From Octopus vulgaris (taxonomy: Eukaryota): a DNA stretch of 64,000 nucleotides. The stretch lies in NCBI GenBank assembly GCA_951406725.2, contig OX597824.1:69378001-69442000 (forward strand). Direction: 5' to 3'. Shown in pieces: positions 1,041 through 47,839 of the stretch (its first letter is position 1; every line of letters starts with the position of its first letter). Made by a program: the position numbers and the translations under genes. The notes under the pieces are model-generated. The model saw only the letters and a list, made by a program, of their open reading frames with translations, did no database searches and had not been told where the DNA came from.

Positions 1041-1655
1041 CATCATCCTAATTCACATTTCCGCCTTCCTATACCCTTTAATGACTCATTAATAAGAACA
1101 ATCTCCTTAATTTGTCATGTCACCATCGGATGCCATTGTACAGAGAGAGAGAGACTACCTTCTAAATATATCGAATTTCTTACAACTCCTCTATCATTTA
1201 TCATAATGTTCCTGACCTTGTCTGAGAATAGATCCGTAGACAGGCTGATATATCTTTATATATATATATATGTACACACTTCTCCCCTCCTTTTACTCTC
1301 TTTATGTATCTATCCATCAATCTATACGTTTGTTCGTAAGCGTGTCTGTGTGTGTTTGTATATATATATATGTGTGTGTGTATGTGTGTGTGTGTGTATT
1401 ACTTCATTAGTTACATACAGTGAAGAGCACGTGGGAGTACCACCACTGTAGTTTTCGTTTGACTGTTTATTTCTTTGCTTTAATTTTCATGCCGAAGTGG
1501 CAGTCTTCAGACGGAATTGCAACAAACGAGGATTTGAGAATCTCAAATTCCTTTTGAAAAACTTAAACCTTTTGGCATGAAACCGCAAGTAACGGAAAAC
1601 TAGTAAATATAATATATTACATTGCAGCAAATTTACCATATATATATATATATAT

Positions 1656-2031
1656 CCCCAGGAAACATTGTCTCCAGATGGCTATACGACACACTATTTG
1701 CGTCCATATATTTTTGAACGAGGGATTTTAGCGTCCCCACTCAGCCCAGAGCAATATCTGTGTACCAATGGTTTCAGGCTTATTTCCCTTCATCAGCACA
1801 AAATAACTACTCGGCTAGAGCAGTTGTGTGCTGATGAAGTGAAATAACCCAGAAATCATTGATAATGCTGATCTGGGTTGGGACAATAAACTACCTTGTT
1901 CGAAAATATAACGACACAGATAGTGTGTCATATAACCAGCCGGAGACGATGTTTCCTGGGGCTAAATAACAGTAACAATCGTTCTAAAGAGGACTGCCAC
2001 GTTACGTTAGCAAATAATTTATAATCTAGAG
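1656..2031. mobile_element. Fold-back (long imperfect inverted repeat) non-autonomous element with a hammerhead motif in each arm; probably Penelope pLTR-derived
   Basis: CCCCAGGAAACATTGTCTCC... (1656) pairs with ...GGAGACGATGTTTCCTGGGG (1961), centre ~1812. The right arm continues to ~2031 and matches the family copy at 20242-20439. Confidence 0.75.
1757..1802 (-). ncRNA. Minimal type I hammerhead ribozyme
   Basis: Minus strand reads UUGUG-CUGAUGA-AGG gaaauaag CCU-GAAA-CCA u UGG U A-CACAGA: intact core, stems I, II and III, and a GUA cleavage triplet. A degenerate mirror copy lies on + at ~1825-1865. Confidence 0.75.
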
Positions 2032-2235
2032 TTCTCTTAGTGGTTGATGGAAACTGAAAGAATCCCGTCGTCTCCCTTCACTTATGCTACTCTTTCTACT
2101 CTTTCTACTCTATCTCTCTATCTCTCTCTCTCTTTCTACTCTATCTCTCGTTCTCTCTCTCTCTTTCTCTCTCTCTCTCTCGCTCTCTCTCTCTCTCGCT
2201 CTCGCTCCCTCTCTAAATATATATATATATCTATG

Positions 2236-2267
<32 letters not shown>

Positions 2268-2305
2268 TGTATATACATATATATATATACATATATATGT
2301 ATTTC

Positions 2306-2352
<47 letters not shown>

Positions 2353-2399
2353 ATGTGTGTGCGTATGTGTGTGTGTGTGTGTGTTTGTGTGTTTATATA

Positions 2400-2433
<34 letters not shown>

Positions 2434-2520
2434 CACATACACAAATATATAAAAGCACTACGCTCATTGTTATATTAGAAGATCATTATTATTATTATTA
2501 TTATTATTATGATTATTATT

Positions 2521-3059
2521 GAGTGAGAGAGCAGTGCATGCCATCAAAGTGACACTGGGGTAAAATATACGAAGCGCAATATACCCATCGTGACTACCCA
2601 TCTGATAAGGGTACACCAGGCACATGCATCACAACCATATATGCGCGACATGGTGATCTAATACCAAGATAAACAGCGCAGGTAGGGCCCAGTTAGAATT
2701 TTCTTCTGGTCGAGTAACCCATCCCGCTCAAAAGGTTCCTGAATAATGATTGTTTAAGGATGTTGAACAAAATACCCATGTTTCCAGAGGTAATTTTTCC
2801 AAATCCCACAAAATTCCTCTCAACACATGGCTACGATGCTCCCCCACTACTTCTGCTCGTGATCAGAGATGCACATATCGTCAGCCACTAAGGGGCAAGC
2901 TCAACTGGTTACGGTCAAACAACTGACAAGCAAATATGTGGTATTGAGCAGAATATTTGCTGTAGCCCATCTTTTATACCAAGACAAAACAATGTACACG
3001 ATAACACTTCCAATCAGTTAAGATCAGAAGCCATGAGATCCACTGCCTGGTACTGCATC

Positions 3060-20743: not shown

Positions 20744-21061
20744 TATTAAATTTGTTTATGGGAAACATATATACAAATAAAGGTTCTATTCTATCATGTC
20801 GGGCACAGTCTAATGGTAAAAAGGGTTAAACATACCCCTGTTGTACATCCATTAATGTGATATCGCCTGCAGAAAAGAATCCATGAAGATGATCAACTTC
20901 ATGCCCACGGACACTACAGACACTACAGACTTCATTGTAATCATCCCAGGAATAAGGACTGTGATCTTAAGAGACAGGTTATTTGTGGAAACACGTGTAG
21001 TGATGCATTAAATGTTTATAAATTCCATCCAAGAATTATTGTCATTATTATTATTATTATC

Positions 21062-21552
21062 ATATGAAAACTCACAGCTTATTTTGCTGGGTATGATAGA
21101 AAGTATCGGCTGTCCACAGCCAGCAGATTAAGGTGACACTTGTTTACTGGTCATGCTTCAAGAACTCTGCGAAGAATTCTTGCGGTTCCAAGCAATACTG
21201 ATTTTTATAGGTATACTACCTTCATACTTGTTCAGATCTTTTTCAGCCATGTTGGTAATTGAGTGCTGATACTTCCAAGTGCACCAATTACTATTGGCAT
21301 TGCATCTACTCTCCTCTTTGACCACAACCTTCGTATTTCCCACTTCAAATCGTCATAGTTGTTCACTTTTATTTCTTTCACATTGTTGCTGTTGTCACCA
21401 GGGCATGCTATGTCGATTATGAGACATATTCTTTCATTTTTATTCACCTTAACAATATCCAGTTTCCGATGTCTGGTCGGGTGATCGCATAGATCATTCC
21501 ATCCCACAGGATTGTGCAATACTTATTTTCGGTGAACCCTTCTGGAATTTGC
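21062..21552 (-). pseudogene. R4/Dong-like non-LTR retrotransposon 3' fragment (RLE endonuclease)
   Basis: ORF 21232-21519: RKLDIVKVNKNERICLIIDIACPGD...YDDLKWEIRRLW...PIVIGALGSI (PD-(D/E)xK-type RLE). Short (TTA)n runs at both ends. Confidence 0.8.
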
Positions 21553-21866
21553 TTATTATTACCTCCGCGAATTTGAACTAAGAACGTAAAGACAGACGAA
21601 ATACCGCTAAGCATTTCACCCGGCGTACTAACGTTTCTGCCACCTCGCGGCCTTCTATCTATCTGTATTTAAAGTTAAATATATATATATATAACGTAAG
21701 GGGGATCAGCCATCTGAATGTGGCTAGGGACAGGGCGGGGTGGTGGGGGTGTTACTGATGCTTTTAGCCCCAGGCGATCATCAAAGTCACCAGAAGGACC
21801 GACACCATATCGGTGTCATTGTTAGCCTGTAAAGGGAGATCAGCCTCCCCGAAGATACGGATACTA

Positions 21867-21909
21867 CATACGGACCGGTTTCGAGGTAATTGCCTCTTAT
21901 CAACGCATG
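21867..21909 (-). ncRNA. Type I hammerhead ribozyme, U3:A8 core variant
   Basis: Minus strand: CAUGCG-UUGAUAA-GAGG caauua CCUC-GAAA-CCGG-UC-CGUAUG. Confidence 0.75.
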
Positions 21910-22161
21910 GTAAGCACCGTTCTTCGATGAGGGACTCTCTCTACAGGCTGCATATATAAGGATTTTCACAGTAACCACCGTCACTGATATAGAAAAACCG
22001 TCCGAAAACAATAATAAATCTCTGAACGAGATGTTTATATCTCGTTCAGAGATTTATTATTGTTTTCGGACGGTTTTTCTACATCAGTGACGGTGGTTAC
22101 TGTGAAAAACCTTATATATGTAGCCTGTAGAGGGAATCCTTCATCGAGGAACGGTGCTTAC

Positions 22162-22204
22162 CATACGTTGATAAGAGGCAATGACCTCGAAACCGGTCCG
22201 TATG
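22162..22204 (+). ncRNA. Type I hammerhead ribozyme, U3:A8 core variant
   Basis: CAUACG-UUGAUAA-GAGG caauga CCUC-GAAA-CCGG-UC-CGUAUG: perfect 6-bp stem I, 4-bp stem II, palindromic ACCGGU stem III. Predicted cleavage after C22198. Confidence 0.8.
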
Positions 22205-22421
22205 TAGTATTCGTATCTTCGAGGGAGGATGATCTCCCTTTACAGGCTAACAAGGACACCGATATGGTGTCGGTCCTCCTGGTGACGTTGATGATCGCCT
22301 GGGGCTAAAAGCATCAGTAACACCCCCACCACCCCGTCCTGTCCCTAACCACATTCAGATGGCTGATCCCCCTTAGGTTATAGAGCAGTTACTGTTTATA
22401 TCTCGTTCAGAGATTTATTAT

Positions 22422-22475
<54 letters not shown>

Positions 22476-23310: not shown

Positions 23311-23454
23311 CGAACTTTAGGTTGGTTATAATATGCTTGTGGCATATTTCAAATTCTAAAGACGAATTCATTGCAGTTACCGTGGAGAATGCTGTAAATT
23401 TTCCTTTTGAAGTTGGAATACGTCACAAGCATATTTTAACCAACCTAAAGTTCG
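23311..23454. repeat. 144-bp imperfect hairpin / MITE-like inverted repeat
   Basis: CGAACTTTAGGTTGGTTATAATATGCTTGTG pairs with CACAAGCATATTTTAACCAACCTAAAGTTCG; pairing continues inward. Confidence 0.75.
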
Positions 23455-46199: not shown

Positions 46200-47460
46200 T
46201 AGAAGTAATTACCTTCTGGCTAGAAAAATACCCAGAAGAGAGCCCAGGACGCATCAACCAGAGATACATAATCGCAGCACTGAGATCAACTATTTCATGT
46301 TCGATACAGTTTACTATCGACAAAAATGTGGAATTACAATGGGAACCCGAGCTGCTCCAATGATTGCGAACCTTGTATTGGGTTACCTAGGATGTAAGTT
46401 ATGCCAATCATCACTGCAAAAATATGGCACCTCATTTCATTGCTATTTTAAAGAGAACTGGAAGAGGTATTTACAAGATTGCTTTATACTTTGAAATGAC
46501 AGCATGGACAAACTTCTCGATTTCAACAATATGCTCAACAATATCAATAGCAACAATGGGACACAGTAACAAACAACTCCCTTTTCTTGACATCTTAATA
46601 AAAATAGTCAATAACCATATCGAGACAGACATCTTCTATAAACCCACAGATTCAAAACAATATCTATTATTCAACTCATGCCAACCCAAATACATAAAAA
46701 TTAATATACCTTATAATCTAGCGAAAAGAATCTGTACCATAGTTTCGGACACCAATACTCGTGAACGAAGACTCCTTGAACTCAGATCAATACTAATCTA
46801 GAGATCATTACCTAACATCATTAATAAATGATGGAATTAAACGAGCAATGGAAATAGACATACGAACATTAAGGGAAGTCAACCGAAATACTACACCAGA
46901 CTTAAAAATCCTCCCATAAATCTCCACACATAACCTTTGAATCAATGAAGCCTTCAACATTATCATCCAAAATCTACCCATCCTCGCAGGAAAAAAACAT
47001 GCACAAAATTATCATGAGTAAAATGCAACCGAAACCATTGAAAAAAAATATTAACCAACGCGAGACTATAAATATCCATTAACAACAAACCAAAAGGGAA
47101 AAAATGCGGTCGGCCTAACTTTGGCGCATGTCCCCACTTATTGGAGGGTACAGAGTTCCATTTTAAACAAGGTGAAAGGTTCAAGATTAAATCAAATTTC
47201 ACCTATGCCTCGGAAAACCTAATTTATTCCATTACCTGCTTAGGGTGTCGTGAACCACTCATCACAAGGAACAAATCCGCCACCCACAATACAGATAGAT
47301 ACAGGTCAGGGAACATATAGAAGGGTGTGCTAGGAACCTTAATCCTAACTTCCTAATTTTCCCCTTCTATCAATGTTCACAGAACATCACAGTGCAGCAA
47401 AGAATGAACAAGGGGGCAACTTTCATCAATAAATTTCATCCATAAACTAACATTAACACA
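46200..47460 (+). pseudogene. Penelope-like element: RT, thumb, Zn-knuckle and GIY-YIG relic
   Basis: YRQKCGITMGTRAAPMIANLVLGYL, WKRYLQDCF (RYxDD), LPFLDILI, DIFYKPTDSKQYLLFNSCQP, KCGRPNFGACPH and NLIYSITCLGC; frameshifted. Confidence 0.9.
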
Positions 47461-47648
47461 TAACATAATACAGAACACAACTAACCGTACCAATAATACC
47501 ACTAACCCCCATACATCCCATACACCATCCATATTACAGTATTATATCTACCCTAACTGCATCACATCCAGGACTACTTACCTGCCTTACACATAATCTT
47601 TTTTACTCAGGGACTACTAAACCCAAAACCGTTTGGTAATCGGTGCGT

Positions 47649-47696
47649 ATTCAAAGCCAGTGAACAGTAACTGATGAAACCGGTATGACTTTGAAT
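47649..47696 (+). ncRNA. Degenerate hammerhead in the Penelope 3' pLTR
   Basis: Stem I ATTCAAAGCCA/TGACTTTGAAT encloses ...CAGtaaCTGAT-GAAA-CCGG-TA; the CUGANGA box is damaged. Confidence 0.5.
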
Positions 47697-47839
47697 CCCT
47701 TTAACAATTCATAATAATGACATTTATTCCTGTTAATTCTACCTCAGTTCATTTAATTGTATATATATTTATCGTTACTTTTCATAAATAAAGCCTTTAT
47801 ATTTTTTTGATATCCAGATAGATAAATAAATAGATAGAT

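Follow-up and report, generated by a model that had tools for sequence, protein, structure and literature searches.

A fold-back element with two inverted arms lies in the window, a 64,000-nt stretch of Octopus vulgaris DNA (contig OX597824.1). The coordinates of its parts are collected in Table 1, and positions within the repeat unit (q) are numbered from window position 22032. An earlier note on this DNA had described two inverted arms of about 343 bp. The alignment bears this out, with 17 substitutions in 343 columns and one 1-nt indel between the paired stretches (94.8% identity, or about 95%). The same note had observed that the unit restarts after the right arm with a period of 361 nt, and the 33-mer at 22032 does recur at 22393 with 97% identity.

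Table 1. Parts of the fold-back element and its target, in positions of the 64,000-nt window.
Feature	Position	Strand	Description	Basis
Left arm	21690..22032	-	5'-truncated unit, q8-351; stops at fixed site A (~q348 = 21693); (TA)n target	
Right arm	22032..22425	+	single full unit (22032-22392) plus 33 nt; stops at fixed site B (q33); (TA)n target	
Part of right arm paired with left arm	22032/22039-22382	+	head-to-head with 21690-22032 (-)	
Tail, ~46 nt	22380..22425	+	between sites A and B	arm-end clusters; PMC11167929
(TA)n target, right side	22426..22457	.		sequence
Shorter TA run at left end	~21680-21693	.		sequence
Foreign tract in left arm	~21843..21962	-	11 consecutive diagnostic sites of a sister subfamily	diagnostic sites
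Type I hammerhead, right arm	22150..22220	+	U3 22168:A8 22173; palindromic ACCGGU stem III; predicted cut after C22198	
Type I hammerhead core and stem I, left arm	21867..21909	-	U3 21903:A8 21898; predicted cut after C21873	
Long covarying stem I extension around hammerhead	22115..22250 (limits approximate)	+		covariation

Several other features were seen in the window. On the minus strand, 21000-21530 holds a broken frame (21232-21522) with no Pfam match; going by its motif, we take this frame to resemble the C-terminal restriction-like nuclease of R4/Dong-type non-LTR retrotransposons. The stretch 21600-21660 is the end of another very high-copy repeat, probably a SINE, whose depth exceeds that of the unit by a factor of hundreds in each of four runs (three guessed to be RNA, one of uncertain type). 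A 136-nt inverted-repeat hairpin at 23315-23450 may be a small MITE. Rfam matches to miRNAs and small RNAs in a 4-kb scan, that hairpin included, were all below cut-off and were rejected as hairpin or microsatellite noise. On the plus strand, 46202-47700 carries a decayed coding Penelope-like element (PLE) with RT and endonuclease pieces and a degenerate hammerhead-like motif at 47660.

Each arm of the element contains a full type I hammerhead. Its core reads UUGAUAA, stems I and II have 6 and 4 bp, ACCGGU and a GUC site are present, and the earlier reading of one such ribozyme per arm holds on both strands. In the right arm, stem I (CAUACG) runs from 22162, the 4-bp stem II carries a 6-nt loop, GAA precedes ACCGGU, and C17 is position 22198. 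The left hammerhead lies on the minus strand and includes one G.U pair in its stem I. In a 111-nt Rfam scan the right hammerhead matched Hammerhead_HH9 (22150-22220) with 26.2 bits and an E-value of 5e-5, below the 52-bit gathering score, and it was absent from the matches of the 4-kb Rfam scan. The HH9 alignment retains the UUAC bulge, the CAAnnA loop and GUA, which are the canonical loop 1/loop 2 contact bases. The bare 53-nt hammerhead folds no better than shuffled sequence (z -1.0 and -0.65).

The hammerhead belongs to a large family. An exact pattern search of the 2.8-Gb genome returned at least 1,162 matches, against 0 for a reversed-pattern control, so the window hammerhead is not a chance occurrence. 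A looser pattern with an ill-chosen stem III length added few members. A similarity search with the unit as query produced 1,534 first-look candidates, and 40 were scored. The subfamily units are 353-361 nt long with mutual identities of 66-100%. Contigs from the four runs cover the family in short pieces from which strand, ends and circles are unreadable. Two further observations concern dispersed copies. A separate hammerhead-like family with a CUGAAGAG core and a different stem II occurs at L221, L229, L230, L233, L243 and L248. Six copies at 3.4-6.9 Mb of G000:C31 have identical boundaries and are probably segmental duplicates of a single insertion; two of them, L135 and L136, were merged by their flanks.

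The core pair varies within the family. Among the pattern matches, 535 are C3:G8, 490 are U3:A8 (about 42%) and 35 are C3:A8, leaving by subtraction 102 that are U3:G8 and rare forms; these counts are subfamily sizes and not independent events. A tree was built from 110 arms that each cover 280 columns or more (shorter arms excluded, midpoint root for drawing only). On it, C:G falls on two separate branches, one of which lies within the U:A copies and is sister to a C:A copy. The tree shows at least two separate switches of the core pair, for which U3:A8 serves as an interchangeable alternative. The earlier proposal that the double change to U3:A8 is compensatory is supported. A perfect core is not an absolute requirement, since the C3:A8 mismatch subfamily (trimers included among its 35 matches) has spread as well.

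Covariation of the 3:8 pair is shared with published U3-A8 hammerheads (PMC3088659), including a variant in the Schistosoma PLE Cercyon (PMC4209133). Unlike in those published cases, C:G, U:G, U:A and C:A subfamilies stand side by side in one family here. The earlier note had overstated the case in treating U3:A8 as remarkable, since the pair is already published as a natural variant with in vitro activity (Perreault 2011, PMC3088659 section 8, per its reference 32), and is described in Schistosoma PLE hammerheads (about 1,300 hits; PMC4209133). Its warning that a CUGANGA search would miss the element is right for this copy and wrong for the family, as 535 sister copies would be found.

The fold of the unit appears to be under selection. 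Stem III is palindromic in 146 of 156 copies, perfectly in 135 of them (with five spellings) and with one unpaired central base in 11; it is broken in 10. The palindrome that had been described for the window copy is thus supported as a selected feature, and through this stem the ribozyme is predicted to pair into a dimer and cleave. In 16 of 37 named pairs both sides change, mostly within the long stem I extension. Pairing holds in 93.9% of cells, compared with 38-56% in slid controls, for a sample of 20 hand-picked copies whose helices come from their own consensus fold, which biases toward pairing. When six natural units were folded as circles (40 shuffles per unit), the predicted structures had 59-69% of bases paired and sense z-scores of -3.1 to -7.1, with the antisense strand always weaker. 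No ATG frame in the unit exceeds 18 codons in sense or 35 in antisense, and there is no protein-coding frame. With the size of the family, this supports the earlier description of a non-coding ribozyme retroelement.

The insertion footprint was read across the genome from 170 retrieved loci, picked by similarity and thus non-random, which reduce to 120 distinct loci with 124 insertions of at least 100 nt. Arm 3' ends cluster at two sites, 94 at A and 67 at B, together 161 of 185 arms. None ends at the predicted cleavage site, which 151 of the 185 arms cross and 21 cross twice. Arm 5' ends, by comparison, are distributed evenly over the unit. No clear conserved stem was seen around sites A and B (covariation term -0.67). 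DNA next to the A and B ends is AT-rich in 141 of 161 cases and contains (TA)5 in 93. Because the sequence at A ends in letters that also fit the TA target, A is placed at about q348 and the tail at about 46 nt; the published tail range is 30-40 nt.

Fold-backs make up 65 of the 124 insertions, and all 65 are head-to-head with their 5' ends meeting inside. One A end (q343-354) is paired with one B end (q27-38) in 47 of them; two are B/B and none is A/A, and in the other 16 one end or both lie elsewhere. Target duplications of 11-14 bp flank 19 of the 65 (12 bp in 12 of these), with a few bases' slack permitted at the ends in scoring, and the other fold-backs lie mostly in TA runs or lack one end. 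The tandem copies that the earlier note had proposed to look for are present: an arm exceeds a single unit in 71 of the 124 insertions, and arrays reach 10 units. One single-orientation copy (L025, 1501-1889) has a flanking direct repeat of about 42 bp, as opposed to the usual 12 bp.

Long inverted arms could also arise at the DNA level, from a MITE or palindrome with the arms as terminal inverted repeats. We consider this very improbable. It is contradicted by variable 5' truncation and by the lack of fixed terminal repeats or a fixed length, as arm lengths and junctions vary freely. In addition, 59 of the 124 insertions have one orientation only, the fixed tail distinguishes the two ends, and the RNA structure covaries.

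Set beside the other insertions analysed, the copy in the window is an A/B fold-back of the ordinary type. Its target duplication does not resolve within the TA run. The 6-nt loop and the restart at 22393 that had been reported are correctly placed, and their reading is refined. Because junctions fall anywhere in the unit, the loop is merely the meeting point of two 5'-truncated arms. The restart is the PLE tail, which would represent the stretch between both PLE reverse-transcription start sites. The integrated inverted copy is likewise a real fold-back but not an unusual one, since PLE insertions as a rule leave an inverted copy and a tail (PMC8557442, PMC3846280).

The 5% divergence of the window arms, together with 10 substitutions diagnostic of two subfamilies, suggested that the arms came from two templates. 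This was rejected: at each of the six flanking diagnostic sites both arms belong to the same subfamily, and the foreign tract is contiguous and confined to the left arm. The tract would be the product of gene conversion or of a double template switch. The copies L007 and L133 are also subfamily mosaics, which suggests that conversion or template switching among copies is common. Mixed-subfamily fold-backs number 2 of 45.

PLEs offer a known route to such a footprint. One PLE protein nicks and extends both strands, with two internal start sites on the RNA defining the tail; it is predicted to be a dimer, and hammerhead cleavage is dispensable in vitro (PMC11167929). An inverted pseudo-LTR (pLTR), a 31-bp tail and 8-10-bp duplications have been described, and pLTRs are sufficient in trans (PMC3846280). 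The octopus family exists as a set of units without an ORF that keep a conserved ribozyme fold and leave this insertion footprint. We read the element, with fairly high confidence, as a fold-back copy of a non-LTR retrozyme that is likely mobilised in trans by a Neptune-type PLE RT/GIY-YIG protein. A PLE protein, probably as a dimer, would nick both strands of AT-rich or (TA)n DNA about 12 bp apart (step 1). Each nick would prime cDNA on hammerhead-sense RNA at internal site A (~q348) or at site B (~q33 of the next unit; step 2). Both cDNAs would stop at random points and then be joined head-to-head (step 3), which would leave the inverted arms, the tail of about 46 nt and the duplication of about 12 bp (step 4). 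The spread of C3:A8, the lack of pLTR similarity and a tail longer than the published 30-40 nt are points against this explanation.

Coding PLEs are plentiful in the genome, with 18,330 first-look candidates, 150 of which were scored. One family has an 850-aa frame with an RT (Pfam RVT_1) and a CX4CX2C motif ahead of the endonuclease region. Pfam detected no GIY-YIG domain in this frame; we take the endonuclease region to be GIY-YIG from its motif. A CX4CX2C motif in that position is a feature of Neptune and Nematis (PMC8557442). Among 20 coding PLE loci, hand-picked as inverted pairs or long frames, 18 are A/B fold-backs in (TA)n with a 40-nt tail at one end only. In a young Neptune-like family (L212 2357-5717, at G000:C3:86.38 Mb, and L076 585-3665) an upstream frame overlaps the RT-EN frame, and the overlap falls at a similar point in the two copies; this may be a programmed frameshift or a two-ORF layout.

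A footprint shared with coding PLEs is also what would be expected if the unit were the pseudo-LTR of an autonomous PLE, its copies being 5'-truncated or solo pLTR remnants of an unsampled coding element. Truncated PLEs are known to give U3-A8 cores as well as pairs of hammerheads on opposite strands, 100-700 bp apart (PMC4209133), and the coding pLTRs here likewise have U3-type cores and ACCGGU. Their hammerheads are small, however, while that of the unit is full and canonical. Beyond the hammerhead, the DNA similarity of the unit to five pLTR stretches from about three coding families stays within shuffle scores. Tandem arms run from unit into unit, up to ten times, with no ORF. PLE protein matches lie near 8 of the 120 unit loci, and 7 of these are separate insertions, outside the unit insertion, past its 3' end or across TA runs; there are none at 51 further loci (not de-duplicated). 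A search for an RT-GIY-YIG ORF between or upstream of unit repeats found no clear case in the 120 loci and one ambiguous one, L162. There (1321-3027, at G000:C1:71.845 Mb) a unit arm passes into a PLE RT fragment with no TA spacer between them, and the other arm is a PLE 3' end. This may be a chimeric insertion, which would suit a pLTR origin, but a later deletion explains it equally well, and L162 was set aside as a retrozyme-PLE chimera because the two are indistinguishable. The earlier note had raised the case that the unit is simply the pLTR of an annotated coding Penelope; no such PLE was found in the 120 loci. On this evidence we judge a pLTR origin to be improbable, and mobilisation of a retrozyme in trans remains our preferred reading.

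For a retrozyme moved in this way, the insert crosses the predicted cleavage site, which leaves two candidate templates: a circle formed by cleavage and re-ligation, as the earlier note had proposed, or a tandem transcript that stays uncut. We put the chances of a circular RNA template at about even against an uncut tandem transcript. Strong selection on the ribozyme is counted in favour of the circle. More-than-unit inserts do not require one, because PLE RT starts internally on uncut RNA in vitro (PMC11167929). Hammerhead cleavage was seen in just one of nine frog elements (bioRxiv 10.64898/2026.07.22.740005).

The same family and PLE enzyme could thus operate with uncut tandem transcripts as the sole template, the hammerhead trimming read-through RNA or persisting as a relic. 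This is a branch of the preferred explanation and not exclusive of it, and we hold it to be a real though somewhat weaker prospect than an even one. Internal priming on unprocessed RNA fits it, as does the spread of the C3:A8 subfamily. So do two arrays: L250 has two variants in the same register on both arms, and L300 (G000:C4:13620762-13624299), an array of ten units that is about 99% homogeneous, has two unit types that recur. A single monomeric circle would be insufficient for these variants unless conversion or local duplication followed, and with the C3:A8 spread they count against such a circle as the sole template. Other evidence points away from uncut transcripts. The core, palindrome and loop contacts are under strong selection, and the predicted circles are stable in sense. 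The arrays L251-L254, of 3-5 units, show only private differences, and none of 34 loci has a neighbouring tandem pair differing at four or more diagnostic sites.

The family resembles the metazoan non-LTR retrozymes of Cervera and de la Pena (2020), whose mussel repeats are 350-390 bp (PMC7229834). As described there, it has a short non-coding unit, tandem copies, long target duplications and a self-paired predicted circle. Its hammerhead is likewise a canonical type I with a 6-bp stem I, a 4-bp stem II and a weak palindromic stem III, and PLEs are present in the same genome. Its unit length (353-361 nt) lies in the 150-450 bp range of non-LTR retrozymes, and its target duplications (11-14 bp) exceed 4 bp. 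It differs from the retrozymes of that account in its roughly 42% of U3:A8 matches and in occurring mostly as dispersed fold-backs of 1-2 units with two fixed ends, the circle here being predicted only. The sections of PMC7229834 consulted do not describe a two-end fold-back footprint in retrozymes.

Endonuclease-bearing PLEs such as Neptune, Poseidon and Naiad (PMC8557442, PMC3846280, PMC11167929) share with the family, as far as these accounts describe them, partial tandems, a head-to-head inverted 5'-truncated copy, an optional tail, AT or (TA)n targets, 8-14-bp duplications and a hammerhead in the repeat. In contrast to them, the octopus unit has no ORF, a tail of about 46 nt as opposed to 30-40 nt, a full canonical hammerhead in place of a minimal one, and no similarity to the sampled coding pLTRs.

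Both the U3:A8 core and the inverted-plus-tail fold-back have been published before. Our literature search found no description of this family, nor of this footprint in retrozymes, although such cases may exist in subscription papers, Repbase or supplements. According to a 2020 review, retrozyme repeats show no motif indicating a partner (PMC7761336), and arguments about the partner of animal retrozymes have so far relied on shared hammerheads, on co-occurrence and on the likeness of pLTRs. A recent preprint (bioRxiv 10.64898/2026.07.22.740005) reaches the same conclusion on the partner, that retrozymes are non-autonomous PLE derivatives. Its case draws on vertebrate co-occurrence and pLTR homology, whereas ours draws on the insertion footprint, without homology to the sampled pLTRs. 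A full PLE footprint on a canonical-hammerhead non-coding unit is therefore independent evidence for the proposed retrozyme-PLE partnership.

The family also provides a natural series of core pairs (C:G, U:G, U:A, C:A) and stem III palindromes for ribozyme tests. As a natural 355-nt substrate with both start sites mapped, it suits an in vitro PLE assay of the circle as template. We offer tentatively, as a possibility short of an even chance, that a ribozyme-made circular RNA of about 355 nt is abundant and is reverse-transcribed directly by a Neptune PLE dimer from the two fixed sites. If so, the fold-backs would be a genomic record of circle-templated two-strand PLE priming and would name the enzyme that spreads animal retrozymes.
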